Of a DNA stretch of 49,886 nt, positions 6,706-43,720 are shown one piece after another. Below the pieces are notes generated by a model that worked only from the letters and a program-made list of their open reading frames with translations, was not told where the DNA came from and searched no databases. The stretch comes from Leucoraja erinacea (Eukaryota): NCBI RefSeq assembly GCF_028641065.1, contig NW_026576938.1:62001-111886 (forward strand). Direction: 5' to 3'. The position numbers and the translations under genes were made by a program. Position 1 is the first letter of the stretch. The number at the start of each line of letters is the position of its first letter.

Positions 6706-6800
6706 CCCCCCCCCCCCCCCCCCCCCCACCCCCACACCCACACACACCACCACCACCACCACCACCACCCCCACCATCCCAACCCACACCCCCTCCACCT
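6706..6800. repeat. Poly-C/(CCA)n low-complexity tract
   Basis: Long C run then CAC/CCA repeats; shorter variant at ~13413-13470. Confidence 0.85.
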
Positions 6801-21834: not shown

Positions 21835-21916
21835 ATGGTTTCACTGACAGGGAATCGCTTCTCTGACATGCTGGTCCCTATTTTGTTCTTTCTATCCCCG
21901 GGGATTTCGTATACAG
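21835..21916 (+). CDS. NPDC1: NPDC1-like exon 1 (signal peptide; alternative start ATG 21868)
   Basis: MVSLTGNRFSDMLVPILFFLSPGISYT-G; strong donor CAG|GTAAGG, phase 1, compatible with exon 2; non-repetitive context. Confidence 0.65.
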
Positions 21917-22417
21917 GTAAGGCAGGGATCATACCCGCTGCATATCAAATGTACGTCTGGGTATTGCATGCGCCGTCTGCAGCCAATTTCAATCATAAAA
22001 TTATTGCAACATTAGATCTGAAATGGACAGACAGGAATGCTAGATATTATTCGGTTTGAGTAAATGCGTGCTCGGTCGAGCTGAAATTGCTATGTAGACC
22101 CTGACGTGCAGCAAATAGCTTTATATTCTTGCAATAATGAAACAACCCAGTGATATTTTCGTTTATTAACAAGATTCAGAATAGCAAGGGCCCTGGGGGA
22201 TTTACTCTCGCGACTGCAAGTAAGATTTATGAATCAAAGAATATGAGTGTTTTTGAATCTTGGATGAAAAATCTCATGTTATGCTTCTTTTAGCTTGTCA
22301 ATTTGTGCAGAGGTTCTAGGGACCCTCTGCGTTTAATCCTCTGTGGGGTTTTTTTAAAAGTGCGACTGAAACATTCTCCGTCTACCTGTGGCTTCATGTA
22401 AGATACGGTTCTCTCTT

Positions 22418-22625
22418 GGCGCTGCGGTAGAGTTGCTGCCTAACACAGCGCCACAGACCAGGGTTCGATCCTGACCACCGGTGCTTGTACGTTCCTCCCG
22501 TGACCGCGAGGGTTTTCTCCGGGTGCTCCTGTTTCCCACATGTAAACGTTTGATTGGCTTCTGAAAATTGTGTGTGGGATAGTGCTAGTGGGCGAGGTTC
22601 GCTGGTCGGCGTCGACGCCGTTTCT
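22418..22625 (+). mobile_element. tRNA-derived SINE
   Basis: A-box-like GGCGCTGCGGTAG and B box GGTTCGATCC; related copies at ~36685-36955 (-), ~44015-44170 (+), ~45550-45850. Confidence 0.7.
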
Positions 22626-22848
22626 CCAAAGACGCGAATGTGAGGATGGTTTTCGGTTGCAAGCTGCTAAGTGTTGGGGAGGGTGTGCATGCAATCTCCG
22701 TCCCCGACACTGGGTGGCGTTTTGGAGACCGGTCATAAGGTTTAGGTGCAGAATTAGGCCATTCAGCCCATCAAGTCGACACCGCCATTCAATCATGACT
22801 GATCTAACTCTCCCTCCCAACCCCATTCCCCTGCCTTCTCCACATAAC

Positions 22849-22880
<32 letters not shown>

Positions 22881-22940
22881 AATCAAGTCCTAGCAACCAA
22901 GGCCAGTGGTGACGGATACATAAGATAATCTTATAAGATA

Positions 22941-22972
22941 GTCTGAAGAAGGGTCTCGACCCGAAACGTCAC
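22941..22972 (+). ncRNA. Minimal type I hammerhead ribozyme motif in a Penelope-derived repeat
   Basis: gt-CTGAAGA-a-GGGT ctcg ACCC-GAAA-CG-TC-ac: intact catalytic core, stem II hairpin, palindromic ACGT stem III. Confidence 0.7.
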
Positions 22973-23224
22973 ATATTCCTTCACTCTATAGATGCTGCCT
23001 CACCCGCTGAGTTTCTCCACCATTTATATCTACCTAAGATAATCTTCCATAGGTTAAGAGCGTACTACAGATTTTAGTATTTTGAAGCAAATTATAAGGA
23101 TAGAGAGACATTTCTAGACCAGAACAAATGGTTTTAATGTCAACTTTTAATCTAAAGTTACAGCAGGATCTTAATCAGTTGGGCAAGTGGTATGAGGACT
23201 GGTGAAATGAGTTGAATGCAGGTA

Positions 23225-23670
23225 ATAAACAATAGACAATAGGTGCAGGAGTAGGCCATTCGGTCCTTCAAGCCAGCACCACCATTCATAGAAACATAGA
23301 AACATAGTAATTAGGTGCAGGAGTAGGCCATTCGGCCCCTCGAGCCTGCACCGCCATTCAATATGATCATGGCTGATCATCCAACTCAGTATCCCGTACC
23401 TGCCTTCTCTCCATACCCTCTGATCTCCTTAGCCACAAGGGCCACATCTAACTCCCTCTTAAATATAGCCAATGAACTGGCCTCAACTATCCTCTGTGGC
23501 AGAGAGTTCCAGAGATTCACCACTCTCTATGTGGAAAAAGTTCTTCTCATCTCGGTTTTAAAGGATTTCCCCCTCATCCTTAAGCTGTGACCCCTTGTCC
23601 TGGACTTCCCCAACATCGGGAGCAATCTTCCTGCATCTAGCCTGTCCAACCCCTTAAGAATTTTGTAAGT
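23225..23670 (-). mobile_element. CR1-like LINE 3' fragment
   Basis: TYKILKGLDRLDAGRLLPMLGKSRTRGHSL plus CR1 tail repeats. Confidence 0.85.
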
Positions 23671-23709
23671 AATGTGATCATGGCTGATCCTGTGTTCATG
23701 GCTGAGAGT

Positions 23710-24178
23710 AAGTACCAAGTAGCCAATAGAGTGTCCCCCACTGCCCTTACACCACAATGGGTTGCATGGTGCATACACTCTATAACCCATACTGCTAATG
23801 AGTCTGTCATGAGTTTGCCCTGCTGGAGTGGTCCACAGCCCAGCCATACAACCAGTACACATCACAGTTGTCTCCACCTGTCCTGATCTCCTTCAGTAGC
23901 CTCCTCCTGCAATTGAACGATTTCTTGGATGGGTAGGCATCCGTCTCTCCAAGGGGGGCTTGTTATTTATACTATTAGTCTGCCTCATTGTTTTAGGTAC
24001 CACCACCTTATGTTCCCATGATACTTTCTTAGCTACTAGGTCGGCATTATTATTCCCAATGTTCACTGGAGTCTGTCCTTTAGCATGGGAGCTACAGATA
24101 TTTGTCTGGGTAGCATTAAGGCCTTCAATAAATCTGTCACCTATTGTTTGTTTGATATTTGGCTGAGAGTTGTTACAT
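23710..24178 (-). mobile_element. Degraded endogenous retrovirus pol fragment (RNase H C-terminus to integrase zinc-finger start), class I/epsilon-like
   Basis: Frameshifted translation: VTDLLKALMLPRQISV..SHAKGQTPVNIGNNNADLVAK..IQEIVQLQEEATEGDQDRW..GLWTTPAGQ..MTDSLAVWVIECMHHATHCG. Confidence 0.75.
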
Positions 24179-24404
24179 TTTAGAAACATAGAAAATAGGT
24201 GCAGGAGTAGGCCATTCGGCCCTTCGAGCCTGCACCGCCATTCAATATGATCATGGCCAATCATCCAACTCAGTATCCTGTACCTGCCTTCTCTCCATAC
24301 CCCCTGATCCCTTTAGCCAAAAGGGCCACATCTAACTCCCTCTTAAATATAGCCAATGAACTGGCCTCAACTACCTACTGTCCCAGGCCTCAACTACCTT
24401 CTGT

Positions 24405-24842
24405 GTTTAAGAGGGAACTGCAGATGCTGGAGAATCGAAGGTTACACAAAAAAGCTGGAGAAACTCAGCGGGTGCAGCAGCATCTATGGAGCGAAGGAAA
24501 TAGGCAACGTTTCGGGCCGAAACCCTTCTTCAGACTGATCGGGGGCGGGGGTGGGCGGGGACAAGAAAGGGAAAAGGAGGAGGAGCCCGAAGGCTGGGGG
24601 ATGGGAGGAGACAGCAGGGGGGCTGAGGAAGGGGAGGAGACAGCAAGGACTAACAAAATTGGGAGAATTCGATGTTCATGCCCCCCGGGATGCAGACTCC
24701 CCAAACGGAATATGAGGTGCTGTTCCTCCAATTTCCGGTGCTGCTCGCTGTGGCCATGGAGGAGACCCAGGACAGAGAGGTCGGAGACGGAGTGGGAGGG
24801 GGAGTTGAAGTGCTGAGCCACCGGGAGGTCAGCTTGGTTATC
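24405..24842 (-). mobile_element. Penelope-like element 3' end (GIY-YIG C-terminus plus pseudo-LTR)
   Basis: DLPVAQHFNSPSHSVSDLSVLGL..RKLEEQHLIFRLGSLHPGG/MNIEFSQF, directly followed by the hammerhead-bearing repeat. Confidence 0.8.
24503..24536 (-). ncRNA. Minimal hammerhead ribozyme motif in the Penelope 3' end
   Basis: Minus strand: gt-CTGAAGA-a-GGGT ttcg GCCC-GAAA-CG-TT-gc. Confidence 0.7.
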
Positions 24843-27249: not shown

Positions 27250-28162
27250 AGATAACAGGTGCAGGAGGAGGCCATTCGGCCCTTCGAGCCAGCACCGCCA
27301 TTCAATGTAATCGTGGCTGATCATCCCCAATCAGTACCCCGTTCCTGCCTTCTCCCCGTATCCCCTGACTCCGCTATCTTTAAGAGCCCTATCTAGCTCT
27401 CTCTTGAAAGTTTCCAGAGAACCGGCCTCCACCGCCCCCTGAGGCAGAGAATTCCACTGACTCACAACTCTCTGGGTGAAAAAGTGTTTTCTCGTCTCCG
27501 TTCTAAATGGCTTACCCCTTATTCTTAAACTGTGGCCCCTGGTTCTGGGCTCCCCCAACATCGGGAACAATTCTCCTCCCTCTAGCATGTCTAAACCCTT
27601 AACAATCTTATGTGTTTCAATGAGATCACCTCTCATCCTTCTAAACTCCAGAGTGTACAAGCCCAGCTGCTCCATTCTCTCAGCATATGACAGTCCCGCC
27701 ATCCCGGGAATTAACCTGGTGAACCTACGCTGCACTCCCTCAAATAGCAAGAATGTCCTTCCTCAAATTAGGGGACCAAAACTGCACACAATACTCCAGG
27801 TGTGGTCTCACTAGGGCCCTGTACAACTGCAGAAGAAACTCTTTGCTCCTATATTCGATTCCTCTTGTTATAAAGGCCAACATGCCATTCGCTTTCTTCA
27901 CTGCCTGCTGGATCTGCATGCTTACTTTCATAGACTGATGTACAAGGACACCCAGATCCCGTTGTACTTCCCCTTTTCCCAACTTGACGCCATTTAGATA
28001 GCAGTCTGCCTTCCTGTTTTTGCTACCAAAGTGGATAACCTCACATTTATCCGCATTAAACTTCATCTGCCATGCATCTGCCCACTCCCCCATCCTGTCC
28101 AAGTTACCCTGCGTTCTCATAGCATCCTCCTCACAGTTCACACTGCCACCCAGCTTTGTGTC
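27250..28162 (-). mobile_element. CR1-like LINE 3' fragment
   Basis: DTKLGG..WQMKFNADKCEVIHFG..LYRALVRPHLEYCVQFWSP through to the 3' UTR. Confidence 0.9.
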
Positions 28163-28557
28163 ATTCGATGATGACTTTGTGAATGACATTGTGATGTTTT
28201 CGGTCGAGACCCTTCTTCAGACTGGAGAGTCTCGACCCGAAAAGTCACCCATACCTTCGCTCCAGAGATGCTGCCTGTCCCGCTGAGTTACTCCAGCTTT
28301 TTGTGGGCAGACAAAAAGCTGGAGAAACTCAGCGGGTGATGCGGCATCTATCGGGCGAAGAAATGGGTGACATTTCGGGTCGAGACCCTTCTTCAGACTG
28401 ATGTGGAGGGGCGGGAAGAAGAAAGGAAGAGGCGGAGGCAGTGGGCTGTGGGAGAGCTGGGACTGGTGTAGATGGGGCATGTTGGGCGGCAAGGCCTGTT
28501 GCCACGCTGTGTGACTCTGGCTCTCTAAAACTCGCTCCCTTGTCCTTCCTGCGTCAG

Positions 28558-28707
28558 GTGCGGCTTCCTGGTGCCCCAGTCATCTGGACTGTGCCCTTCT
28601 CCGTCGCAATCCCTGCACCGCTGGATTGCAGGACTGTGGCCCCTGCTTACCCGGATACCGAGAGGACGGTGACGAGAAGTGTATCCTCGAGGGGCATCAG
28701 ACGCAGG
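28558..28707 (+). CDS. NPDC1: NPDC1-like exon 2 (Cys-rich ectodomain)
   Basis: AASWCPSHLDCALLRRNPCTAGLQDCGPCLPGYREDGDEKCILE matches the NPDC1 CPxxLDCALxRRxxC..CGPCL..C pattern; polypyrimidine-CAG acceptor, GTGAGT donor, phase 1-1, 150 bp. Confidence 0.92.
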
Positions 28708-28839
28708 GTGAGTGGAGGAGACCTCGGTTTAGTTTCTTTTATTGTTACGTGTACCGAAGTACGGTGAAAAACCTTTAGTAGACAAAAAATGCTGGAGAAA
28801 CTCAGCGGGTTAGGCAGCATCTGTGGAGAAAAGGTGAAG

Positions 28840-29350
28840 CATTCTTGCTATTGGGGGAGTGCAGCGTAGGTTTACAAGGTTAATTCCCGGGATGGCGGGA
28901 CTGTCATTTGCTGAGAGAATGGAGCGGCTGGGCTTGTATACTCTGGAGTTTAGAAGGATGAGAGGGTATCTCATTGAAACATATAAGATTATTCAGAGTT
29001 TAGACACACTAGAAACATGCAGGAAACATGTTCCCGATGTTGGGGGAGTCCAGAACCAGGGGCCACAGTTTAAGAATAAGGGGTAAGCCATTAGAATGGA
29101 GACGAGAAAACACTTTTTCCCTCTGAGTTGTGAGTCTGTGTTCAGAGGGCGGTGGAGGCAGGTTCTCTGGATGCTTTCAAGAGAGAGCTAGATAGGGCTC
29201 TTAAAGATAGCGGAGTCAGGGGATATGGGGAGAAGGCAGGAACGGAGGGTACTGATTAGAGATGATCAGCCGTGATCACATTGAATGGCAGTGCTGGCAT
29301 GAAGGGCCAAATGGCCTACTCCTGCACCTATTGTCTATTGTCTATTGCCT
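28840..29350 (+). mobile_element. CR1-like LINE 3' fragment
   Basis: VQRRFTRLIPGMAGLS..LEFRRMRG; CR1 tail. Confidence 0.85.
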
Positions 29351-29561
29351 ATTGTGACATTTCGGGTCGAGACCCTTCTTCTTCTTCAGACTGATCTGCA
29401 GTTCCTTCCTGCACAAGTGAATGAGGAAGTGGGATTACATGGGACTAGTGTGAATGGGTGATCGTTAGCAAGCATGGACTCGGCAGGCCGAAGGGCATGA
29501 TTCCACCTGGTATCTCCAGACTAAACTAAACATTACATGTGTGTTTTTTGTTCTGTTCCAG

Positions 29562-29741
29562 CAACTCTCCTTGCTCCTGGCCTGAAACTCACCGACTCCA
29601 GCCTCAGCCACTCTTCGAGTGCCCACCAGAGCACAGAGGGACCCTGGGCCATGGCAAAGACCACCCCAGTCACTCACCCCACCAGAGGGGGGGACGAGAG
29701 CAAGAAGCTTTCCCGTCTGCTAAATGACGTGGTGTCGCTGA
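29562..29741 (+). CDS. NPDC1: NPDC1-like exon 3 (Ser/Thr/Pro-rich stalk); 3' boundary uncertain
   Basis: TTCTGTTCCAG acceptor, phase 1; TLLAPGLKLTDSS..RLLNDVVSL; the in-frame donor is GA|GTTAGG at 29742 (180 bp). Confidence 0.75.
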
Positions 29742-30024
29742 GTTAGGTAACGGGAGGCCGGAATTTCCGTGACCTGCCGACACTGGAATCTTGAGTGGAA
29801 CACAGAGTGCCGGATGAACTCAGTGGGTCAGCCAGAGTCGGTGGAGGGAAACGGGCAGATTATGTTTCGGGTCGGGTCTGAAGTGAAGTCCTGTCCATTT
29901 CCATCCACAGATGCTGCCCGACCCGCTTCTGTTTCTGTTTAACGAGAAGCCGGAGTGGATTAAGCAGGGGTAGGAAAAGGGAATGTGTGGGGGCAGGAGT
30001 GGTGGAGAGATTGGTTATAGAATG

Positions 30025-30440
30025 AATAAATGAATAAGTTTATTGGCCAAGTATTCACATACAAGGAATTTGCCTTGGTGCTCCGCCCGCAAGTGACAAC
30101 ATGACATACAGTGACAGTTAAAAATGACACATAAAACATTAAACATTAATAATAAAACATTATCGATTAAACATGTGAATTAAATAAAATACCAGAGCAA
30201 TAGGAGGCTACAGATTTCTGTCTGTTGAGTAGAGCTACTACTCGTGGAAAAAAAAACTGTTTTTATGTCTGGCTGTGGCAGCTTTGACAGTCCGGAGTCG
30301 ACTTCCAGAGGGAAGTGATTCACAGAGTTTGTGGCCAGGGTGAGAGGGGTCAGAGATGATGATTGCCCGCTCGCTTCCTGGCCCTTGCAGTGTACAGTTC
30401 GTCAATGGAGGGAAGGTTGCAGCCAATAACATTCTCAGCT
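30025..30440 (-). mobile_element. Rex1-like LINE 3' fragment
   Basis: IISDPSHPGHKLCESLPSGSRLRTVKAATARHKNSFF; the same 3' tail family recurs at ~7615-7820, ~14285-14500, ~43060-43190. Confidence 0.75.
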
Positions 30441-31671
30441 GATGGGAATAGCGGGGAGAGCTGGGAGGTTCGAGGGAAAGACGGAGAGGTGTGGAGAGAG
30501 GGAAAGGGAGGGAAGGAGAGCAAGGTGGTTGGGAGGGGAGGGTGAGATGGGAGAGCGGAGATGGAAGAAAGAGCAAATGGGGGGGGGGGGGCTTCAGACA
30601 GGAGAGAGAGCATCTGGGAGGAAACAAAATGGGCATGAGAGGACAGAAGGGATGGAGGCAGAGGGATGTGTGGGGGTGGGGGGAAACGGAAAGATGAAGA
30701 TGGCTAATTGGAGAGAGAGGAGTTGAGTGGGAAGGACCAAGGTGAGGGGAGTTTGTAGGAAGGTCAGAGAGATGAGGGGGGAGTGGAGGTGATGGGAGGG
30801 GTGAGGGGAGGGTGAGGGGAAAGGAGGGGAGAATGAGGGGAGGATTCACACCTTTTCTCCAATTAGCCACCTTCGTTCTCCCCATTCACACCCATTTATT
30901 TTCCACGTCGCTCTCCATCTCCCCCTTTTCCTCTCCGATTCCCTCTCTCTGACCTCCACTCACTCTTTTTTCCATCCCACTCATCTGTCTCAACCTCTCT
31001 CCCTTCCCCTCTCAACTCCCTCACAAACCAACTTGTAGAGTCATAGAGTGATATAATGTGGAAACAGGCCCTTTGGCCCAACTTGACCACACCGGCCAAC
31101 AATCTCCCAGCTACCCTAGTCCCAGCTGCCTGCGCTTGGTCCATATCCCTCCAAACCTGTCCTATCCATGTATCTGTCCAACTGTTTCTTAAATGATGGG
31201 ATAGTCCCAGCCTCAACTACCTCCTCTGGCAGCTCGTTCCATGCACCCACCACCCTTTGTGTGAAAAAGCTACCCCTCGGATTCCTATCAAATCTTTTCC
31301 CCTTCACCTTGAACCCAGGGCCGGAAATCCCGGTGGTGAGGTCGGAGGGGTTGACGAGGGGGGACACACGGCTTTGAGGGGGGGGGGGCTTTCCATGGGC
31401 TTCAGACGCGGGGGAGGCCCACGGCTTAAAATCAAGTGCTGCCTCCCGAGGCTTTTGAGACCGGTGCGGGGCCCCTCGACAGGCCGATTCAATCCCCCAT
31501 TCGGGGTTGCTGTGCTGGATCCAGAGTTTGGTCACCAACCAGGTCAGCTCCCGATGTTACCGTCCACAGGGCCCACGGCCGAAGCCTCCCGCTCCCTCTC
31601 CCCACATCCGTGGAACTCACTGCCTTGGAGACTGTCATTGGCAAATTAAAGTGATCAAGCGGCTGCATCGT

Positions 31672-32627
31672 CAAGTCAAGTCAAGTTTATTTGTCACATC
31701 GAGTGCTGAAATGAAAGTGGCAATGCCGCGACTGTTGTGACGCCCAACAAAACACGGGCAATTAAAACACAATCCCACACATTCGACATAATAAATAATA
31801 GGCCGATTGTAGAGTTAGTCCCTGATGAGAAAGGCGTTACAGTCCGATTCCTCTGGGGTGCATGGCACGAAGCTTTGCCTGACCGTGCGGCTGGAACAGT
31901 CCGTGCAGGGGTGAGTCTCTCAGAGTTGGTCACCTCCTGTTGTACCAGGTCAGCTTCCCCATAGTGATGTTACCGTCACTTCTCTCTGCAGAGCCTTATT
32001 GTCCTTGGCAGAGCAATTCCCGAACCAGATGGTAATGTTCCCGGACAAGATGCTTTCCACCGCCGCTGCGTAGAAGCACTGTAGGATCCTCGGAGACACT
32101 CTGAATTTCCTCATTGCCTGAGGTGGTAACGCACCTTGCCTTACTCACCATGGAGGCGTGTGATGACTATGTCATATCCTCAGGATGTGGACTCCCAGAT
32201 ATTTAAAACAGTTCACCCTATCCACAGGATCCCCATTTATCCTCAATGGAGTGTACGTCCTCGGATGATGTGCCCTCCTAAAGTCCATGATCAGCTCCTT
32301 CGTGTTTTTGATGTTCAAGAGGAGGCTGTTGTCCTGACACCAGAGTGCCAGATCAGCCACCTCCTCCCGGTAGGCCCTCTCATCATTGTCTGAGATCAGG
32401 CCCACCACCACAGTGTCATCAGCAAACTTAATTATTGAATTGGAGCTGAACCTAGCCACACAGTCATGTGTGTACAGGGAGTACAATAGGGGGCTGAGGA
32501 TGCAACCCTGGGGCGATCCTGTGCTCAGGGTGAGGGACTCCGATGTATTCCCTCCCATCTTGACTACCTGGGGCCTGGCGGTGAGAAAGTCCAGGACCCA
32601 GGCACACAGGGAGGTGTTGAGGCCCAA
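31672..32627 (-). mobile_element. Rex1-like LINE, same family as 4065-5285
   Basis: [27 protein letters not shown]; (ACTTG)n tail; 3' half riddled with small deletions. Confidence 0.88.
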
Positions 32628-32750
32628 TGGCGGAGTAGACTTGATGGGCCGAATGGCCCAGTTCTGCTCCCGGCACCTACGAACTCATGGCAGGGTCAAC
32701 TCGTTGGTCCATTGTCCACTGACTTTCCCTCCGTCCACCTCTCTCCCCAG

Positions 32751-32817
32751 GTCTGGTCATCATCTGCACAGTGACCGGTCTCCTCGGCCTGGCTGTGGCT
32801 GCTCGCTGTTGGTATCG
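32751..32817 (+). CDS. NPDC1: NPDC1-like exon 4 (transmembrane helix)
   Basis: LVIICTVTGLLGLAVAARCWY-R; CTCTCCCCAG acceptor, GTGAGT donor, phase 1-2. Confidence 0.92.
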
Positions 32818-33024
32818 GTGAGTCCCTGCTCTCTACACCATCCACAAGGCTGCAGATACACATGGAACACTGGAGTAACTCAGCGGGTCAGGCAGCATCT
32901 CTGGAGATGGAAGGACGGGTGACGTTTTGGGTCGAGACCCTTCTTCAGTCTTCAGTACCCCATAGAAACATAGACAAATGGGTGCAGAAGGAGGCCAATT
33001 GGCCCTTCGAGCCTGCACCGCCAC

Positions 33025-34740
33025 ACACTAGAGGCAGGAAACATGTTCCCGATGTTGGGGGAGTCCAGAATCAGAGGGCCATAGTTTAAGAATAAGTGGT
33101 AAGCCATTTGGAAAGGAGATGAGGAAACACTTTTTCACACAGAGAGTTGTGAGTCTGTGGAATTCAATGCCCCAGGTGGAGGCCGGTTCTCTGGATACTT
33201 TCAAGAGAGAGCTTGATAGGGCTCTTAAAGATAGCGGAGTCAGGGGATATGGGGAGAAGGCAGGAACGGGGTACTGAATGTGGATGATCAGCCATGATCA
33301 CATTGAATGGCGGTGCTGGCTCGAAAAGCTGAATGGCCTACTCCTGCACCTATTGCCTATTGTCTAATGCCATTCATTGTCCTCTCCCCATATCCCCTGA
33401 CTCCGCTATCTTTAAGAGCCCTATCTAGCTCTCTCTTTAAAGTATCCAGAGAACTGGCCTCCACCGCCCTCTGAGGCAGAGAATTCCACAGACTCACAAC
33501 TCTCTGTGAGAAAAAGTATTTCCTCATCTCCGTTCTAAATGACATACCACTTTTTCTTAAAGTGTAGCCCCTGGTTCTGGACTCCCCCAACATTGGGAAC
33601 ATGTTTCCTGCCTCCAGCCTGTCCAAACCCTTAATAATCTTACATCTTTCAATAAGATACATGTTTCAATAAGATACCCTTTCATCCTTCTAAACTCCTG
33701 AGTATACAAGCCCAGCCGCTCCAATCTATCAACATATGATAGTCCCGCCATCCCAGGAATTAACCTGGTGAACCTACGCTGCACTCCCTCAATAGCAAGA
33801 ATGTCCTTCCTCACATTTGTAGACCAAAACTGCACACAATACTCCAGGTGTGGTCTCACTGGGGCCCTGTACAACTGCAGAAAGACCTCCTTGCTCCAAT
33901 ACTCAACTCCTCTTGTTATACTTCCATCCGACACTAGGTGTCACTTAAACCTCAAACTCGGGTTGAATAACATATGATGAGCGTTTGTTGACACTGGGCC
34001 GATTTAGGAGGGGCCTTATTGAACCTTAGCAAACAGTGAAAGGCCTGCGTAGAGTGGATGTGGAGAGGATGTTCCCACCAGTGGGAGAGCTTCTCTTTCT
34101 CACACACCGAGTTGTGAGTCTGTGGCATTCTCTGCCTCAGAGGGCGGCGGAGGCCGGTTCCCTGGATACATTCATAGAAACATAGAAACATAGACAATAG
34201 GTGCAGGAGTGGGCCATTCGGCCCTTCGAGCCTGCACCGCCATTCAATATGATCATGGCTGATCATCCAACTCAGTATCCTGTACCTGCCTTCTCCCCAT
34301 ACCCCCTGATCCCTTTAGTCACAAGGGCCACATCTAACTCCCTCTTAAATACAGCCAATGAACTGTGGCCTCAACTACCTTCTGTGGCAGAGAATTCCAG
34401 AGATTCACCACTCTTTGTGTGAAATTTTTTTTTCTCATCTCGGTCCTAAAAGATTTCCCCCTTATCCTTAAAGAGAGAGCTAGATAGGGCTCTTAAAGAT
34501 AGCGGAGTCAGGGGATATGGGGAGAAGGCAGGAACGGTGCCTCCTGCACCTATTGTCTATGTTTCTATGAATGGCAGTGCTGGTTCGAAGGGAAGAATGG
34601 ACTACTCCTGCACCTAATGTCTATTGTCTATTGAGAGTCCAGGACCAGAGGTCTCAGAATAAAAGGACGTACCTTTAGAAATGAAATTAGGAAACATTTC
34701 TTTAGTCAGAGGGTGGTGAATCTGAATGGCTTTAGACGGG
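33025..34740. mobile_element. Cluster of nested CR1-like LINE fragments, both orientations
   Basis: Repeated CR1 ORF2 C-terminal peptides and 3' UTRs. Confidence 0.8.
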
Positions 34741-35234
34741 TTCTTCATTTAGACAGTCTTGATTTTCGAGACATTGAAGACAAAAAGGGTGGGGATTTTT
34801 TCTGACAAAAAAAAATGCAGATGTTAGAAACCTGATGTAAAATAAGAGTCAAAGACAGATGCTGCAAACTTGAGCTAAAAACCAAACCACTGAAGGAACT
34901 CAGCAGACCAGGCAGCATGTGTGGAGGGCAACGGACAGAGTATCGTTTCGAGCCAGGACCCTTCTTCAGACTGATTAACACTGCCGACTGAATCTGCTGA
35001 AGGGACCCGACCCGAAACGTTGCCTCTCCATGTTCTGCAGAGATGCTGCCCGACCCGCTGAGTTACTCCAGCGGTTTGCGTCTTTAGTTGCGAACTAACA
35101 TCTGCAGTTCTTGTGTCCCCACCAATTACATTTATAGTTTAAACCTCCCAAATTCCTCTCAATTAACCGACAAACCTGACATTCCTACAATCGCCTGTCC
35201 CACTTAAGCGATTTTTTAGGCTAGATTCAGATTC

Positions 35235-35710
35235 AACTTTAATTGTCATTGTGCAGTGTACAGTACAGAGACAACGAAATGCAGTTAGCATCTCCCTGGA
35301 AGAGCGACATAGAATATGAATAAATAAATCTATTTACATGCATACAGTCATAGTGTTTTTCCTGTGGGAGGAGTGTCCGGGGAGGGGAAGGGGGGTGATT
35401 GGCAGTCACCGAGGTACGTTGTTGAGTAGTGTAACAGCCGCAGGGAAGAAGCTGTTCCTGGACCTGCTGGTCCAGCAACGGAGAGACCTGTAGCGCCTCC
35501 CGGATGGTAGGTGGGTAAACAGTCCGTGGTTGGGGTGAGAGCAGTCCTTGGCGATGCTGAGCGCCCTCCGCAGACAACGCTTGCTTTGGACAGACTCAAT
35601 GGAGGGGAGCAAGGAACCGGTGATGCGTTGGGCAATTTTCACCACCCTCTGCAATGCTTTCCGGTCGGAGACAGAGCAGTTGCCGTACCATACTGTGATA
35701 CAGTTGGTAC
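35235..35710 (-). mobile_element. Rex1-like LINE 3' fragment
   Basis: CITVWYGNCSVSDRKALQRVVKIAQRITG..LPSGRRYRS..SFFPAAV. Confidence 0.8.
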
Positions 35711-36149
35711 AGGTTGTCGCCACATGGTCACCGTGGTGTCGCCTGCATGCTCGTCAGTGGTCTCTCTCCTCAGTCGCCCAAAGAGTTGTAGCGTCTTTGT
35801 GGTGGCCGCTGGATTTTCAACCTGCCGCGACTATGACAGTCGCCTAAAAATAACCCAAGTGGGACAGACCCATTACTAACAGCAGCATAACAGGCCTGCA
35901 AACTCAATACTCATACATAAAATAAATTTAAAAAACCCAATAAATAACAACACCAAAAATAAAAAAATACAGGTGCAGAAATGTCCAACCTAGACAGTTC
36001 ATAGTTTAGTTAATTTTAGTCAAGTCAAGTCAATTTTATTTCTATAGCACATTTAAAAACAACTCTTGTTGACCAAAGTGCTTTACATTAGTGCAGGTAC
36101 TAGCCTGCTACATACAGTGGTACATAGATCTAACAATACATACATAAAT

Positions 36150-36530
36150 AGACAATAGAAAATAGGTGTAGGAGTAGGCCAATTGGACCTTCGAGCCAGC
36201 ACCGCCATTCAATGTGATCATGGCTGATCATCCCCAATCAGTTCCCCGTTCCTGCCTTCTCCCCATATCCCCTGACTCTGCTATTTTGAAGAGCTCCATC
36301 TAGCTCTCTCTTGAAAGCATCCAGAGAACTGGCCTCCACCGCCCTCTGAGGCAGAGAATTCCACAGACTCACCACTCTCTGTGAGTAAAAGTGTTTCCTC
36401 GTCTCCGTTCTAAATGGCTTACCCCTTATTCTTAAACTGTGGCTCCTGGTTCTGGACCCCCCCCAACATCGGGAACATGTTTCCCGCCTCTAGTGTGTCC
36501 GAACGCTTAATAATCTTATATGTTTCAAGT
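36150..36530 (-). mobile_element. CR1-like LINE 3' fragment
   Basis: CR1 3' UTR and ORF2 end on the minus strand. Confidence 0.8.
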
Positions 36531-37089
36531 CGTACGTATGTTTCAAATACATACATACAGCGCTCCCTCAGAGGACCTAAAGAAAGGCTTGAGAGTAGAA
36601 ATAAGTTTTAAGTCTCGACTTAAAAGAATTGATGGACTTTTAGTTTAAAGATCCAGGAAGATAAAGAATTAAAAATTTTAGTTTCAAGATACAGCACGGA
36701 AACAGGCCATTCAGCCCATCGAGTGCGCGCTGACCAACAACCTAGTTCTAGTTCAACCCTACACACTAGGACCAATTTACAGAAGCCAATTAACCTGCAA
36801 ACCAGCATGTTTTTATCATGTGGGGGGAAACCAGAGCACCTGGAGAAAACCCACGTGGTCACAGGCTGAAAGGTGTACACTCTCTACAGACACGCACGCG
36901 TGGTCAGGATGGAACCCGATCTCTGGCGCAGTCGGGCAGCAAAGCTACCATGCCACCCCTTTGGTTAGTTTAACCGCATCACGTACACGAGGACCGGGCG
37001 TCCACAGCACTCCAGGGTCGAATATTTAGAAGCCTTTGGTTTTTACTTTGATTTACGAGCGTCTCAACAAAGTATTTGTTTTGTTCCAG

Positions 37090-37147
37090 GCTGCAGAAGG
37101 AGGTGAGACTGGCACAGAAGATGGTCTATCAAGGAGTACAGCCCCCG
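37090..37147 (+). CDS. NPDC1: NPDC1-like exon 5
   Basis: R-LQKEVRLAQKMVYQGVQPP (cf. NPDC1 RLQREIRLTQKADY); TTGTTCCAG acceptor, GTAAGG donor, phase 2-0. Confidence 0.92.
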
Positions 37148-37274
37148 GTAAGGAACCAAGGCACAAAGAGGACTGGAGAACTGGCAGAAATTGGACCTTG
37201 GAAAAAAATTCAACTATCTATCCATGATAATTTTTTCAACCTCAATAACATAATCTCAATAACATAATTCATCG

Positions 37275-39005
37275 CCATTGAGGGAGTGCAGCGTAGGTTC
37301 ACAAGGTTAATTCCCGGGATGGCGGGACTGTCATATGCTGAGAGAATGGAGCAGCTGGGCTTGTACACTCTAGACCAGTGGTTCTCAAATGGGGGTACGC
37401 GTACCCCTGGGGTACGTGAGATTTTAAAATATAGGGCTACATATACAGGGCCGGCCTTAGGATGTGCGGGGCCCAATTGGGAACAATTTTGGTGAACCCC
37501 AGGTTCCCAGCCAAGGTGTGTCAGCCCAGTTATTTAGTATATATTATGAAATTGTACACTAGGTGCTATGGATTCTACACTGTGTGAATCTCTCCTGCTC
37601 CCTCCCGTTTGACTGTCAGTAGCTCCGCGGCTTCCAACCTTTACCGTAGCTGCTAATTACCATTAAACTGCATTATGTGATTGGACACAATGCCCTTGGA
37701 GACAGCGGCTGATTGGACAGGAGGAGACCTATTTGTTGATTGGACGGGTATTTTAAGGCAAGCTGGTTGGTGATTGGATGCAACCCCCTTAGAGACAGCG
37801 TTTGATTGGCCGCCAAATAACATGGTCAAATCTGTAACAAAAATCGCTGGTCGGTGCGAACTCAGTAACTATCTGGTTGTTTCTCCAAACTAAACAGTAT
37901 AACATACAGGTACATTCATTTAAAATTAAAGTCAGTGATGATTTCACATGATTTCTTACTGTGTAAAGCTCAATATCTGACCAATTTCTGTTTAACATGT
38001 TTGGCCTGCCGTGAGCATTTTTCTCTCCCAAAACAGTTCATATCTAGCAAACCGATGATAAATATTTTTATTTTTTATTTTTAGCAATTTCTGCTTTTCT
38101 TTAAAATTAAGTTAATGATTTCTTTTTGAGCACAGATCTTTACTATGATCCCAAAAGAAGACACTTTATGTTGATAATTATTTTTATGTGCACAAATCTT
38201 TATTTATAATTATGTTAATTTTTTTATTTTTTTTTTTAGTTATATATTTTTATTTCCAAATAGTTCAAGAGAGACCACTACAAATGGTTATATGGTCACT
38301 GTTTTCACTACATTAGATTGAATCACTACATTTTAGTGATGAGAAATATTTGCAATAAATTTAGTCATGGATTATTAACATTTAAAATGTTCGAAATAGT
38401 TTTTTTTCAAATGTTTGAATTTTGTATGTGTTTATCAGTTCCAAAGTTTAATAAATCAGACACTGATGGCGCAGTGCTCTGTTTTAAGTCTTTTTTTTTT
38501 CAACCAAAAATGCTTTGCGCTGGTTAGCGGGTACTTGGCTGAAAAAATATTTCACAGGGGGTACATCACTGAAAAAAGGTTGAGAACCACTGTCCTAGAG
38601 TTTAGAAGGATGAGAGGATATCTTATTGAAACATAAAAGATTATTAAGGGTTTGGACACGCTAGAGGCAGGAAACATGTTCCCGATGTTGGGGGAGTCCA
38701 GAACGAGGGCCACACAGTTTAAGAATAAGGGGTGAGCCATTTAGAACGGAGATGAGGAAACACTTTTTCACACAGAGAGTTGTGATTCTGTGGAATTCTC
38801 TGCCTCAGGGGGCGGTGGAGGCCGGTTCTCTGGATACTTTCAAGAGAGAACTAGATAGGGCTCTTAAAGATAGCGGAGTCAGGGGATATGGGGAGAAGGC
38901 AGGAACGGGGTACTGATTGTGGATGATCAGCCATGATCACATTGAATGGTGGTGCTGGTTCGAAGGGCCGAATGGCCTCCTCCTGCACCTATTGTCTATG
39001 TTTCT
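37275..39005 (+). mobile_element. CR1-like LINE split by a DNA transposon
   Basis: ..GLYTL (37374) resumes as EFRRMRGYLIET after 38597. Confidence 0.85.
37376..38592. mobile_element. Non-autonomous hAT (Charlie/Buster-like) DNA transposon, 1217 bp
   Basis: TIRs CAGTGGTTCTCAA...TTGAGAACCACTG; imperfect 8-bp TSD CTCTAGAC/TCCTAGAG with central TA; no transposase ORF. Confidence 0.85.
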
Positions 39006-39219
39006 ATGTTTGTATGGGCTCTTTTTGAATGTGCGGCTGCATGGTAAATCAAATTCCACTTTACCTTACCTGGTGCATGCGGCAAAGAATCTAATTACAT
39101 TCCATTCAATGCACCTGCATCAACTACCTCCTCCAGCAGCTCGTTCCATGCACCAACCACCCTTTGCATGTAGAAGCAGCCCCTCAGGTTCTGATTCAAT
39201 ATCTCTCCTCTTTCCTCAG

Positions 39220-39299
39220 TTCATGGCCAGGAGACTTGTGGAAAAGCTTCAGAGGCATCACTACCAGCACCAGAAGAAAGTCATCCAAGCCTTGGAACA
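39220..39299 (+). CDS. NPDC1: NPDC1-like exon 6
   Basis: FMARRLVEKLQRHHYQHQKKVIQALE-Q (HYQHQ motif of NPDC1/CAB-1); CTTTCCTCAG acceptor, GTGAGT donor, phase 0-2. Confidence 0.92.
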
Positions 39300-39339
39300 G
39301 TGAGTTTCCCTGACCTCTTGTTTACCACTCAGTGTACAA

Positions 39340-39895
39340 GTTCAAATTCAAGTTCAAGTGAGTTTATTGTCATGTGTCCCTGTATAGGACAATGAAATTC
39401 TTGCTTTGCTTAAGCACACAGAACATAGTAGGCATTTACTACAAAACAGATAAATGTGTCCATATACCATGATATAAATATATACACACATGAATAAATA
39501 AACTGATAAACTGCAAATAACAGAAAATGGGTTCATAATAATCAGAGTTTTATCGGAGCCAGGTTTAATAGCCTGATGGCTGTGGGGAAGTAGCTATTCC
39601 TGAACCTGGTCGTTGCAGTCTTCAGGCTCCTGTACCTTCTACCTGAAGGTAGCAGGGAGATGAGTGTGTGGCCAGGATAGTGTGGGTCTTTGATGATACT
39701 GCCAGCCTTTTTGAGGCAGCCACTGCGATAAATCCCCTCGATGGAAGGAAGGTCAGAGCTGATGATGGACTGGGCAGTGTTTACTACTTTCTGTAGTCTT
39801 TTCCTCTCCAGGGCGCTCAAATTGCCGAACCAAGCCACGATGCAACCGGTCAGTATGCTCTCGACTGTGCACCTGTATAAGTTAGAGAGAGTCTT
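39340..39895 (-). mobile_element. Rex1-like LINE 3' fragment
   Basis: YRCTVESILTGCIVAWFGN..LPSGRRYRSLKTATTRFRNSYFPTAIRLLN; (AACTTG)n tail. Confidence 0.85.
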
Positions 39896-40129
39896 GATGT
39901 AAGAATCCTTGATGTCCAAGCTAAGCGGTGATATAATGACCTCCCCTCCCATCCACTCCTGACCTCTGACCTCTGATCTCCCCTCTCATGGATGGCACAG
40001 TGGCACAGCTTAATCTAATGCCAGCAGTAATTATGTCACTAGCGGGCGAAGCACCAAGGCAAATTCCTTGTATGTGAATAAGGGGCCAATAAATCTATTC
40101 ATTCATTAATTCACTCGCTTAATACCCGA

Positions 40130-40925
40130 GAAGTATCCAAACTGTTAATAATCTTATATGTTTCAATAAGATCCCCTCTCATTGTTCTAAATTCCAGAGT
40201 ATACAAGCCCAGCTGCTCCATTCTCTCAGCATATGACAATAGACAATAGACAATAGGTCCAGGAGTAGGCCATTTGGCCCTTCAAGCCAGCACCGCCATT
40301 CAATGTGATCATGGCTGATCATCCACAATCAGTACCCTCTTCCTGCCTTCTCCCGATATCCCCTGACTCTGCTATTTTTAAGAGCCTGATCTATCTCTCT
40401 CTTGAAAGCATCCAGAGAACCAGCCTCTAGGCAGAGAAGTCCACAGACTCACCACTCTCTGTGAGAAAAAGTGTTTCCTCGTCTCTCCTTATTCTTAAGC
40501 TGTGTGGCCCCTGGTTCTGGACTCCCCCCAACATCGGGAACATGTTACCTGCCTCTAGCATGTCCAAACCCATAACAATTTTATATGTTTCAATGAGATA
40601 CCCTCTCATCCTTCTAAACTCCAGGGTGTACAAGCCCAGCTGCTCCATTTTCTCAGCATATGACAGTCTCGCCATCCCAGGAATTAACCTGGTGAACCTA
40701 CGCTGCACTCCCTCAATAGCACGAATGTCCTCCCTCAAATTAGGGCACCAAAACTGCACACAATACTCCAGGTGTGGTCTCACTAGGGCTCTGTACAACT
40801 GCAGAAGGACCTCTTTGCTCCTATATCCGATTCCTCTTGTTATGAAGGCCATCAAGCCATTCACTTTCTTCACTGCCTGCTGTACCTGCATGCTTACTTT
40901 CATTGACTGATGAACAAGGATCTGC
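40130..40925 (-). mobile_element. CR1-like LINE fragments
   Basis: LYRALVRPHLEYCVQFWCP..FRRMRG. Confidence 0.85.
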
Positions 40926-40983
40926 TTGAAGCCCCGATCCTTCACACCTGCTGACTAAGACTGCTGTCTTTTCTTCATCCCAG

Positions 40984-41083
40984 GAGCAAATCCAAGATGA
41001 ATGCAGGGCAGATATCGTCGGAATCTGAGCCGGATAATGAAAACGGGGAATATACTGTCTACGAGTGTCCAGGTCTGGCCATG
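40984..41083 (+). CDS. NPDC1: NPDC1-like exon 7
   Basis: SKSKMNAGQISSESEPDNENGEYTVYECPGLAM (cf. NPDC1 SDEENEDGDFTVYECPGLAP); CCCAG acceptor, GTAAGC donor, phase 2-0. Confidence 0.95.
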
Positions 41084-41429
41084 GTAAGCATTTCCATCAC
41101 GCACCCATTTACTTCCCCTTATACCTTTCCCAAGAAAGTGCAGGTCCACCGCTGGTTTTCCAGCATCCGTGGTTCCAGAGCCTTACCGGATTATCCGTTT
41201 TGCCAGACACAACATGGCCCCATGAGGAGTCCAACGGTATCGGAACGCTGCACCTAGGCCACCCAGGGGCCGAGATACCGATGCGTGAAGTCGGCACTGG
41301 GATCGGATCACAAAGACATGTGGGCTAATTGGCCTCTGTAAATTGCCCCCTTATGTGTAGGGGACATGTGTAGGAACGCAACTGCAGATGCTGCTTTACG
41401 GTACGATACGATATAAATTTATTGAAATT

Positions 41430-43430
41430 TAAATGAAAGTAGGCATGCAGGTGAAGAAAGCAAATGGCATGCTGCCCTTCATAGCAAGAGGCGTTGAGTC
41501 TAGGAGCAAAGAGGTCCTTCTGCAGTTGTACAGGGCCATGGTGAGACCACACCTCGAGTATTGTGTGCAGTTTTGGCCCCCTAATTTAAGGAAGAACATT
41601 CTTTCTATTAACCATATAACCATATAACAATTACAGCACGGAAACAGGCCCTACAAGTCCGTGCCGAACACTTATTCTCCCCTAGTCCCATCTACCTGCA
41701 CTCAGACCATAACCCTCCATTCCTTTCCCATCCATATACCTATCCAATTTATTTTTAAATGATAAAATCAACCTGCCTCCACCACTTCCACTGGAACCTC
41801 ATTCCACACAGCTGCCACTCTCTGAGTAAAGAAGTTCCCCCTCATGTTACCCCTAAACTTCTGTCCCTTAATTCTGAAGTCATGTCCTCTTGTTTGAATC
41901 TTCCCTACTCTCAATGGGAAAAGCTTGTCCACATCAACTCTGTCTATCCCTCTCATCATTTTAAAGACCTCTATCAAGTCCCCCCTTAACCTTCTGTGCT
42001 CCAGAGAATAAAGCCCTAACTTATTCAACCTATCTCTGTAACTTAGTTGCTGAAACCCAGGCAACATTCTAGTAAATCTCCTCTGTACTCTCTCTATTGA
42101 GGGAGTGCAGCTTAGGTTCACCAGGTTAAATCCCGGGATGGCGGGTCTGTCATATGCTGACAGAATGGAGCGGCTGGGCTTGTATACTCTGTAATTTAGA
42201 AGGATGAGAGGCTATCTTATTGAAACATATAAGATTATTAAAGGTTTGGACACTCTAGAGTCCAGAACCAGGGGCCACAGTTTAAGAATATGGGGTAAGG
42301 CACTTAGAACGGAGATGATGAAACACTTTTTCTCACAGAGAGTTGGGAGTCTGTGGCATTCTCTGCCTCAAAGTGCGGTGGAGGCTGGTTCTCTGGATAC
42401 TTTCAAGATAGAGCTAGATAGGGCTCTTAAAGATAGCGGAGTCAGGGGATATGGGGAGAAGGCAGGAATGGGGTACTTATTGGGGATGATCAGCCATGAT
42501 CACGTTGAATGGCGGTGCTGGCTCGAAGGGCCGAATGGCCTATTCCTGCACCTATTGCCTATTGTCTATTGTCTATTTATCCCAGATAAATTGATTTGCC
42601 AACAGTCAACAGTTTCTTCCCACTGAGGGTGAACACAAAAAGCTGGAGTAACTCAGCGGGACAGGCAGCATCTCTGGAGAGAAGGAATGGGTGACGTTTT
42701 ATGTTGTGACTGAATAAGGGTCTCGGCCTGACACGTCACCCATCCCTTCTCTCCAGAGATGCTGCCTGTCCCGCTGAGTTACTCCAGCATTTGGCGTCCA
42801 TCCTAATGTGGATGGGGAAAATGGGATAACATAGAACTAATGTGTGAACGGATGATCGATGGTCGGCTTGGACTCAGCTAAAGGACAATAGACAATATGT
42901 GCAGGAGTAGGCCATTCGGCCCTTCGAGCCAACACCGCCATTCAATGTGATCATGGCTGATCATCCACAATCAGTACCCCGTTCCTGCCTTCTCCCCATA
43001 TCCCCCGACTCCACTATCTTTAAGAACCCTATCTAGCTCTCTCTTGACAGTCTCCAGAGAAGTAAGTAAGTAAGTTTATTGGCCAAGTATTCACATACAA
43101 GGAATTTGCCTTGGTGCTCCACCCACAAATAACAACAGTGACAGTTACAAATGACTCAGAAAACACTGAACATTAATAATAATAAAAGAACCGGCCTCCA
43201 CCACCCTCTGAGGCAGAGAATTCCACAGACTCGCAACTCTCTGTGAGAAAAAGTTTTTCCGTTCTAAATGCCTTACCCCTTATTCTTAAACTGTGTGGCC
43301 CCTGGTTCTGGACTCCCCCAACATCGGGAACATGTTTCCTGCCTCTAGCGTGTCCAAACCCTTAATAATCTTCTGTTTCAATAAGAAAACCTCTCATCCG
43401 TATACAAGCCCAGCCGCTCCATTCTCTCAG
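41430..43430. mobile_element. Cluster of nested CR1-like LINEs plus an inverted Penelope-derived pair
   Basis: A plus-strand CR1 (~41430-41605, resuming ~42095-42575) is interrupted by a minus-strand CR1 of another subfamily; a further minus copy at ~42885-43430. Confidence 0.8.
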
Positions 43431-43507
43431 CATTTCCTTGTTGTATTTTTCATTCTTTCTATGGCTTCACGATCAATAAGTCCACTTTGTTGAATCTTGT
43501 GCTTCAG

Positions 43508-43585
43508 ACTGGAGAGATGGAGGTTCACAATCCTCTGTTCGACACCTCGATCCTCAAAAGCATCTCATCCATCGAGCAGCAGTAG
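43508..43585 (+). CDS. NPDC1: NPDC1-like exon 8 (last coding exon)
   Basis: TGEMEVHNPLFDTSILKSISSIEQQ* (cf. NPDC1 TGEMEVRNPLFD); CTTCAG acceptor, phase 0. Confidence 0.95.
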   Translation, partial: TGEMEVHNPLFDTSILKSISSIEQQ

Positions 43586-43714
43586 CCAACTGGACCCACA
43601 AGGATGAAGGATGACAGAACGCTCTCCCTGCTTCTATCGAGGGTCGAAGTGGTGGTGTGGTCAGTCCTGGTGGTGACAATGCAAAATTGGACCCTTGTAC
43701 CTGCTCTATCATTC

Positions 43715-43720
43715 ATTAAA
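43715..43720 (+). terminator. Candidate polyadenylation signal of the NPDC1-like gene
   Basis: ATTAAA 130 nt after the stop codon. Confidence 0.4.

Follow-up and report, generated by a model that had tools for sequence, protein, structure and literature searches.

What is the spliced gene that follows an array of Hsp70 copies in the little skate's genome (Leucoraja erinacea)? A preliminary description of the 49,886-nucleotide stretch analyzed here (the window) had presented it as a hidden member of the NPDC1/CAB-1 family and as a new candidate ohnologue retained in a primordial MHC. The gene is in fact the already known NPDC1L and is not new. This paralogue was named in 2013, when exons 5 and 8 were assigned in the little skate (Frankenberg and Renfree, PMC3665618), and was mapped in 2022 in sharks and the thorny skate (Sukparangsi et al., PMC9492771); far from being hidden, the window gene is annotated in RefSeq as NPDC1-like (XP_055487966.1). 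We regard this identity as virtually certain. The skate gene differs from published NPDC1L in having eight coding exons, not nine, and in carrying a six-copy Hsp70 array directly upstream. This array, an apparent loss of a luminal exon in skates and a clade-wide change of the tail motif are details that we did not find in the literature, which also yielded no functional data on NPDC1L.

Structure of the gene and its product

The gene lies on the forward strand of the window. Exon 1 (82 nt, 21835..21916) supplies the start codon and a likely signal peptide; its Met13 is an alternative start, and the matching residue begins isoform X3 of Rhinoraja. Exon 2 (150 nt, 28558..28707) encodes the six-cysteine, putatively luminal domain and exon 3 (180 nt, 29562..29741), the equivalent of canonical exon 4, a Ser/Thr-rich stalk. 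The transmembrane helix is contributed by exon 4 (67 nt, 32751..32817), followed by the juxtamembrane RLQKEVRLAQK in exon 5 (58 nt, 37090..37147), a diverged HYQHQ helix in exon 6 (80 nt, 39220..39299), an acidic stretch with TVYECPGLA in exon 7 (100 nt, 40984..41083) and GEMEVHNPLFD with the stop codon in the coding part of exon 8 (78 nt, 43508..43585). A candidate poly(A) signal, ATTAAA, which may serve this transcript, is found 3' of the stop at 43715-43720.

These exons (82+150+180+67+58+80+100+78 = 795 nt) form one open frame of 264 codons, and all seven introns have GT-AG borders, so that the exon sizes and the 264-residue membrane protein of the preliminary description are all present. 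The donor of exon 3, GTTAGG, is weak; in codon position and phase it coincides with that of the canonical NPDC1 gene of this genome. A donor 5 nt further downstream was rejected: it shifts the frame, and the site used agrees with both the canonical gene and RefSeq. Ab initio exon lists were noisy and served as leads only. Kyte-Doolittle windows of 19 residues exceed 1.5 at starts from residue 127 to 141, and this hydropathy suggests a single-pass topology with the Cys-rich domain in the lumen; the stalk and tail are expected to be mostly disordered.

The product is identical to XP_055487966.1 at 264 of 264 residues and has an 83% identical orthologue in Rhinoraja. Exon 2 matches the Pfam NPDC1 profile PF06809 at 34.1 bits (cut-off 23), exon 7 taken alone reaches 22.7 bits, slightly below this cut-off, and the Rhinoraja orthologue scores 136.3 bits. 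In a Logan contig of 939 bp, residues 146-264 can be read without interruption (119/119 identical); the contig thereby spans exons 4-8, which cover 10.8 kb of the genome. A processed pseudogene was rejected as its origin, since none of five matches in the skate genome is an intronless copy. Junctions 1/2, 2/3 and 3/4 are supported by the RefSeq models of two skates. The RefSeq identity, the Rhinoraja orthologue, the Pfam match and the spliced contig together show that the gene is not a chance assembly of frames.

Evidence from RNA is sparse. No RNA datasets were listed for the last exon, read depth over its repeat-free bin was below 1 in all three RNA runs (0.9, 0.14 and 0.12), and none of the gene's exon-exon junctions appeared among the 15 read joints listed, out of about 12,600, for 28000-44000, where repeats swamped the mapping.

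The eight coding exons contrast with the nine-exon structure of the family. Relative to sawfish, a 32-residue luminal segment is absent at the exon 2/3 junction, where canonical exon 3 is missing, confirming that the EDEIDFL-type segment is lacking, as had been noticed before. Sawfish, stingray, sharks and coelacanth have the segment and both skates seen lack it, a distribution that points to exon loss in the skate lineage and not to a general trait of the paralogue. When this segment from eight orthologues was compared with introns 1-3 by tblastn, only chance matches to a remnant were obtained (best E ~0.03 among the matches listed). In an alignment of 30 NPDC1L proteins, the motifs ECPGLA and GEME.NPLF are invariant in all 30. 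The annotated NPDC1L models of carpet sharks and of some catsharks and houndsharks lack the Cys domain.

A separate canonical NPDC1

Were the window gene the only NPDC1 in the genome, it would be no second NPDC gene. Four PF06809 matches were obtained in the skate genome, one on the contig of the window (C1757) and three on a second sequence (C31), where a canonical NPDC1 of the nine-exon type lies, together with its neighbors, at 26.35-26.45 Mb. Exons 2-9 of this gene were rebuilt; its exon 1 was not located, and it entered the gene tree lacking the N-terminus. Like human NPDC1 at 9q34.3, it has in common with NPDC1L the six-Cys domain, the stalk, the transmembrane helix, HYQHQ, TVYECPGLA and GEME.NPLF. 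Its exons of 67, 80 and 100 nt and their phases are the same as in NPDC1L, whereas the counterpart of the 58-nt exon 5 measures 88 nt. The two skate proteins are 35% identical over 270 columns. In NPDC1L, LAQSAQMY is replaced, NEDGDF is changed to NENGEY and EVKNP to EVHNP, and the neighbors differ; the divergence from NPDC1 at RRLVEKLQRHHYQHQKKVI noted in the preliminary description is real in the sequence comparison.

The gene tree was built from 68 rows picked out of 262 homologues, including 14 outgroup rows, of which two are named (Branchiostoma and Lingula) and the others were judged invertebrate by sequence. It places the window protein outside the canonical clade, in a 25-row NPDC1L clade (100/100) with sharks, rays, coelacanth, lungfish (including the NPDC1-like model XP_043939225), amphibians, turtles and squamates. 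The C31 protein falls in a 26-row NPDC1 clade (97/91) that also holds the NPDC1 proteins of teleosts, birds and mammals. Sharks and bony vertebrates occur in both clades, so the split is older than crown gnathostomes; a lamprey row stands beside the two clades, its placement not resolved. The RefSeq name of the skate protein, 'neural proliferation differentiation and control protein 1-like', does not distinguish NPDC1L from NPDC1, and several canonical shark NPDC1 proteins are also named '-like'. The likeness to C. elegans CAB-1 is taken from papers and from PF06809 membership, CAB-1 itself lying outside our sequence comparison. In these papers, CAB-1 is presented as a family member that binds AEX-3/MADD and acts in dense-core vesicle secretion (PMC8612575, PMC12824698).

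Mirror blocks around NPDC1L and NPDC1

The window gene sits on an unplaced 382-kb contig, directly downstream of six tandem intronless Hsp70 copies at 44.6-80.0 kb. The fourth to sixth of these lie in the window on the forward strand: the fourth (1381..3303) and fifth (9415..11337) each encode 640 residues, the fourth with an EEVD end, and the sixth (16081..17946), nearest to NPDC1L, has an in-frame stop after residue 621 that removes the EEVD tail. By their lack of introns these are HSPA1-type genes, putatively orthologous to HSPA1. On the other side, POU exons follow at 129.7-139.3 kb; by eye, their translations agree with published skate POU5F1. Next come minus-strand exons of FHA and PHD type (159.7-172.2 kb), four HCR/CCHCR1 matches (all four on this contig) at 187.8-212.1 kb, beta-tubulin at 245.6-252.0 kb and a PRY-SPRY match at 298 kb. 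From its FHA and PHD architecture and its position, we call the FHA-PHD gene TCF19-like. In human, POU5F1, TCF19, CCHCR1 and beta-tubulin are framework genes of the class I region. The class III setting proposed earlier thus holds for the Hsp70 side only, the other side carrying POU5F1, a TCF19-like gene, CCHCR1 and beta-tubulin.

The expected class III neighbors were not seen. None of the 21 tRNA-synt_1 (VARS-family), 13 LSM-family or 15 MHC_I matches falls on this contig, VARS-family genes being carried by C1086 and C1702, and VARS1, LSM2, CLIC1, SAPCD1, NEU1 and the MHC class I/II families are absent from the 148 + 81 non-repetitive frames, a survey that covered 229 of 355 listed frames of at least 45 aa and is the basis of the result for CLIC1, SAPCD1 and NEU1. 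Since the contig is unplaced and has no MHC class I match, MHC linkage here rests on the marker genes and on other species. In a published supplement, Npdc1l is assigned to chr19 of the white shark and chr30 of the thorny skate and is given as unidentified in human (PMC9492771); the white shark MHC is located on chr19 (PMC10751288).

Published NPDC1L occurs in elasmobranchs, coelacanth, lungfish, amphibians, turtles and squamates, and is reported lost in mammals. It lies upstream of POU5F1 and shares its orientation, and TCF19 and CCHCR1 are found further on; the skate arrangement is the same. In the accessible text and supplements of this literature we found no mention of an Hsp70-NPDC1L adjacency. 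On C31, canonical NPDC1 is accompanied by POU exons that match published POU5F3 (by eye) and by a Glyco_transf_10 (FUT7-type) gene at 26.375 Mb. In the opossum, Npdc1 and Pou5f3 have first exons in common (PMC9937046). The exons flanking it are presumably those of ABCA2 and NSMF, names given to four short exons for which Pfam returned no match. The neighbors that would mark an ordinary NPDC1 (ENTPD2, FUT7, ABCA2) are therefore represented, by the FUT7-type and ABCA2-like genes, at the C31 copy instead of the window copy. The result is a pair of mirror blocks, NPDC1L-POU5F1-TCF19-like-CCHCR1 and NPDC1-POU5F3-FUT7-type-ABCA2-like.

The tail motif and TBC1D23

Exon 7 contains the counterpart of a known binding site. 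The human NPDC1 peptide DEENEDGDFTVYEC binds TBC1D23 at 2.9 uM (2024 paper), and the corresponding segment of skate NPDC1L is DNENGEYTVYEC. The cargo pattern of TBC1D23 is loose, with [DE] at three or more of five positions, then [TS][LIV][YFW] (PMC11093223). In skate NPDC1L (ENGEY-TVY) the triad is present, and two of the five preceding positions are acidic, one short of the pattern. Among the tree rows, the triad is kept in 22 of 23 scorable NPDC1L proteins, and the 3-of-5 acidic pattern occurs in 1/23 of these versus 25/26 NPDC1 rows (two rows lacking the motif region omitted); in a wider set the figures are 4/36 and 80/80 (four rows omitted). The upstream motif LAxSAxMYHYQ is found in 0/25 NPDC1L, 24/26 NPDC1 and 13/14 outgroup rows.

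A predicted complex of the NPDC1L tail (residues 213-252) with residues 565-690 of TBC1D23 from Rhinoraja, a stand-in from another skate, scored 0.45 versus 0.02 for the best control, with contacts agreeing at 87% or more and a partner pLDDT of at least 46. We rate this as weak support: 5 of 78 solved complexes fell in this score band, as did all four passing mismatches (of 180), in a calibration free of peptides, and the TBC1D23-syntaxin-16 peptide complex has already been solved, so that the pass may reflect memory. By analogy with NPDC1, the tail may make NPDC1L a TBC1D23 cargo that cycles from endosome to Golgi, probably with weaker binding than NPDC1.

Proposed origin and role of NPDC1L

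We read the window gene as skate NPDC1L, with an Hsp70 array on one side and POU5F1 on the other, and as likely encoding a single-pass protein of secretory vesicles, endosomes and the trans-Golgi (rough probability, 0.8). In this model, the N-terminal part, comprising the six-Cys domain and the Ser/Thr stalk, would face the lumen, and the conserved cytoplasmic tail would drive cycling between these compartments. TBC1D23, a Golgi tether adaptor, would recognize the acidic-TVY motif, probably more weakly than in NPDC1, and a role of NPDC1L in regulated secretion would follow from the family's connection with MADD/AEX-3, an exchange factor for Rab3/Rab27. Taken jointly, the topology, the TBC1D23 reading and the secretion link, which are carried over from the paralogue, seem to us slightly favored. 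A doubtful but serious competitor is that NPDC1L drifted from vesicle cycling to become mainly a mucin-like cell-surface glycoprotein or to follow another sorting route. The clade-wide loss of the acidic pattern and of LAxSAxMYHYQ fits such a drift, as do a longer stem branch in the tree (0.53 versus 0.14 for NPDC1), the shark models devoid of the Cys domain, the luminal exon missing in skates and the loss of NPDC1L in several lineages. However, the TVY-like triad, ECPGLA and GEME.NPLF are retained from sharks to squamates, the complex score is weakly positive, and the acidic pattern is itself loose, given that 5 of 14 outgroup rows likewise miss it and that syntaxin-16 binds TBC1D23 through the short DDNTLY.

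As to origin, NPDC1L and NPDC1 are a published paralogue pair (PMC3665618, PMC9492771, PMC9937046), and the paired neighbors, together with PMC9492771, indicate that the duplication was very probably part of the vertebrate genome doubling. The second NPDC gene proposed earlier is the NPDC1L of this pair; a 2R origin is worded as 'possibly' in PMC9492771. The lamprey row leaves the split unplaced relative to cyclostomes, which would also suit an early gnathostome in which the NPDC1-POU5 block was copied by segmental duplication, with no whole-genome duplication, and only a multigenic duplication is mentioned in PMC3665618. We consider this improbable: Clic1/Clic3 and Traf2l/Traf2 pairs go with the two loci at larger distance (PMC9492771). 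C31 also carries at 7.2 Mb an intron-containing Hsp70-family gene, probably HSPA5, which fits the MHC/9q paralogon. A skate-specific duplicate, a relocated true NPDC1 orthologue or a decaying pseudogene might account for the exon fewer, the weak exon 3 donor and the low RNA depth, but has hardly any likelihood left, for the frame is intact and equals the RefSeq model, exons 4-8 are spliced in a contig, shark and tetrapod orthologues join the gene at 100/100, and canonical NPDC1 occupies its usual block on C31; the orthology part of this explanation is already refuted.

We can offer a more speculative view, which we consider less likely than not. After the duplication, NPDC1L may have taken a different trafficking route through a detuned vesicle-tethering signal, in which, from sharks and lobe-finned fish to amphibians and reptiles, TVYECPGLA is kept while one acidic residue of the TBC1D23-binding cluster and the LAQSAQM helix are lost. 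The order Hsp70-NPDC1L-POU5F1-TCF19-CCHCR1-tubulin might then represent the ancestral junction of the class III and class I frameworks, broken in mammals with the loss of NPDC1L. The value of the skate locus is that both mirror blocks are cleanly confirmed within one assembly, and the changed tail motif of NPDC1L offers a cheap and specific first functional test.

Results

The eight-exon gene of the window is a real gene, as three independent lines of evidence establish. Its product is identical to RefSeq XP_055487966.1 (NPDC1-like), the RefSeq contig having the same length as our contig C1757, so that the gene is not hidden as the preliminary description had it; the orthologue in another skate, Rhinoraja, is represented by three isoforms with 83% identity and the same exon joins; and in a 939-bp Logan contig exons 4-8 run on without interruption, coding for residues 146-264. 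Given that these exons cover 10.8 kb of genome and that the little skate assembly yielded no intronless copy, this contig is most simply read as a spliced transcript. All eight exons have the predicted sizes (window positions 21835-43585, plus strand) and are joined through GT-AG introns into a single 264-aa open frame, which comprises a hydrophobic N-terminus, a six-Cys domain, a Ser/Thr stalk, one TM helix and a tail of ~105 residues. A perfect inverted repeat (window 21385-21536; 73-nt arms, 6-nt spacer) ends ~300 bp upstream of the start codon; elsewhere in the assembly it has just short partial matches, and it may have arisen by local duplication or be an artefact of assembly. Immediately 3' of the gene lies a 357-aa open frame that contains a GIY-YIG domain (window 44290-45360) and is probably a retroelement fragment, which we infer to be of the Penelope type.

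In an IQ-TREE phylogeny of 68 proteins over 304 columns, with 14 outgroup rows as the root, the window protein groups first with Rhinoraja, next with Hypanus and Pristis and after that with sharks. All of these belong to an NPDC1L clade of 25 rows (support 100/100) that also contains coelacanth, lungfish, caecilian, newt, frogs, turtles and squamates. The window protein lies outside the canonical NPDC1 clade (26 rows, 97/91), which unites a second little skate protein, encoded on contig C31, with shark, teleost, amphibian, bird, squamate and mammal NPDC1. Since cartilaginous and bony vertebrates occur in both clades, the split predates crown gnathostomes; the lamprey and hagfish rows form long branches whose position the tree leaves unresolved. 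Among the best 120 of 1,212 homologues, 40 score nearer the NPDC1L references, and no name of a mammal, bird or teleost is among these 40. Three squamates carry both genes in the tree (P0066, P0067 and P0108 versus P0021, P0018 and P0020), which contradicts the suggestion in PMC3665618 (2013) that squamates lost NPDC1; a squamate Npdc1 is entered in the supplement of PMC9492771 (2022).

The canonical gene is separate. An NPDC1 profile search of the assembly gave four matches, namely exon 2 of the window gene and three on C31 (26.42-26.45 Mb, minus strand), where exons 2-9 (141, 105, 174, 67, 88, 80, 100 and 72 nt) encode a canonical protein that shows LAQSAQMYHYQHQKQQM and NEDGDFTVY and shares 35% identity with the window protein. 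Beyond this C31 gene lie a POU gene, a Glyco_transf_10 gene and an exon that we take to be the start of ABCA2; the upstream exons (C31:26545430-26567706), which have no Pfam match, are presumably NSMF. No ENTPD2 exon was recognised in the 260 kb of C31 surveyed. By eye, the POU exon translations match the published little-skate POU5F3 (PMC9492771 supplement).

The 105-nt exon of the C31 gene carries DIDYIASIL, the counterpart of the EDEIDFL segment, and nothing in the window gene matches it, in agreement with the absence described earlier. Aligned with sawfish, the window protein cleanly lacks 32 residues at the exon 2/3 junction. Because NPDC1L of sharks, stingray, coelacanth and tetrapods retains this luminal segment, its absence would, judging from two skates, represent a loss in skates and not a hallmark of the paralogue. 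Certain NPDC1L models of sharks (catshark X3, houndshark X2, zebra shark and bamboo shark; P0009, P0010, P0034, P0047) lack the six-Cys exon, be it through a splice isoform, a gene-model gap or lineage loss.

C1757 was surveyed over positions 1-381,800 of 381,913. Six intronless Hsp70 genes (44614-80000; three in the window at 1381-17946) lie upstream of NPDC1L (83.8-105.6 kb, plus). They form a tandem array in which five copies share 98.7-100% protein identity, in repeat units of 6-10 kb with ~95-97% DNA identity, and the remaining copy (44.6 kb) shows 87% identity. Upstream of every copy in the window are a TATA box and HSE-like GAAnnTTC words. In the copy closest to NPDC1L, a stop codon following residue 621 eliminates EEVD, through either a true truncation or an assembly error.

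Beyond NPDC1L lie a POU gene on the same strand (129.7-139.3 kb), FHA and PHD exons of presumed TCF19 architecture (159.7-172.2 kb, minus), CCHCR1 (187.8-212.1 kb, with all four HCR matches of the genome), tubulin (245.6-252.0 kb) and a PRY-SPRY gene (298 kb). Between CCHCR1 and tubulin, a 620-aa trypsin-like frame with a Trypsin_2 domain (222,034-223,893, minus) is one we take to be FAM111-like, a family that to our knowledge is not expected in the human MHC. Reverse transcriptase and integrase-SAM-like frames (119-121.6 kb, minus), between NPDC1L and the POU gene, are likely a retrotransposon, which we infer to be DIRS-type. Once translated, the POU exons of C1757 agree by eye with POU5F1 as published for little skate (PMC9492771 supplement). 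The class III neighbours proposed earlier were not seen: C1757 holds 0 of 21 tRNA-synt_1 and 0 of 13 LSM matches of the genome, and none of these genes is among 229 frames scanned. It likewise holds 0 of 15 MHC class I matches, all of which are on other small contigs. Because this assembly has the MHC in fragments, these absences are no evidence against linkage.

Discussion

The earlier inference of a second NPDC gene arising by duplication is correct and already published. PMC3665618 named NPDC1L as a paralogue flanking POU5F1, found little skate exons of both genes, dated the duplication to a gnathostome ancestor and proposed loss in mammals, which PMC9937046 repeats for the mammalian ancestor. 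PMC9492771 pairs Npdc1l/Npdc1, Clic1/Clic3 and Traf2l/Traf2, assigns Npdc1l to chr19 in white shark and chr30 in thorny skate, does not identify it in human, an opossum-like marsupial or platypus, and puts a 2R origin forward as possible. The white shark MHC is on chr19 according to PMC10751288, the main text of which does not mention NPDC. Literature searches, with subscription papers and figures outside their scope, turned up neither a functional study of NPDC1L nor any mention of its adjacency to Hsp70; other supplements may show the gene order.

The related CAB-1 binds AEX-3/MADD and works with RAB-27 in dense-core vesicle secretion (PMC8612575, PMC12824698), NPDC1 decreases in MADD-deficient endothelial cells (PMC12824698), and for human NPDC1 the peptide DEENEDGDFTVYEC has a measured affinity of 2.9 uM for TBC1D23, an adaptor of Golgi tethers (PMC11093223). 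Because ECPGLA and GEME.NPLF are present in 30/30 aligned NPDC1L proteins and a TVY-like triad is kept in 22/23, the tail motifs argue for a retained trafficking role. Two features speak against simple equivalence with NPDC1. The acidic cluster is weaker across the whole clade, its published loose pattern being matched by 1/23 NPDC1L, 25/26 NPDC1 and 9/14 outgroup proteins of the tree set, and by 4/36 NPDC1L versus 80/80 NPDC1 proteins of a wider set; the strict LAxSAxMYHYQ motif occurs in 0/25 NPDC1L, with LAQS..VHHYQ kept in bony vertebrates and full departure only in elasmobranchs and frogs. A predicted complex between tail residues 213-252 and Rhinoraja TBC1D23 565-690 scores 0.45 against 0.02 for the best control (contact agreement at least 87%, partner pLDDT at least 46), in a range (up to 0.60) that is rated weak, where calibration placed 5 of 78 solved complexes and, out of 180 mismatches, all 4 that passed; it would indicate likeness only, a similar complex having already been solved.

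That NPDC1L is a detuned trafficking signal in a locus preserving a class III/class I junction is a tentative reading that we consider rather doubtful. Our analysis favors, with a probability of about 0.55, NPDC1L as a membrane protein that would cycle between vesicle, endosome and TGN, its tail serving as a probably weaker TBC1D23 ligand.
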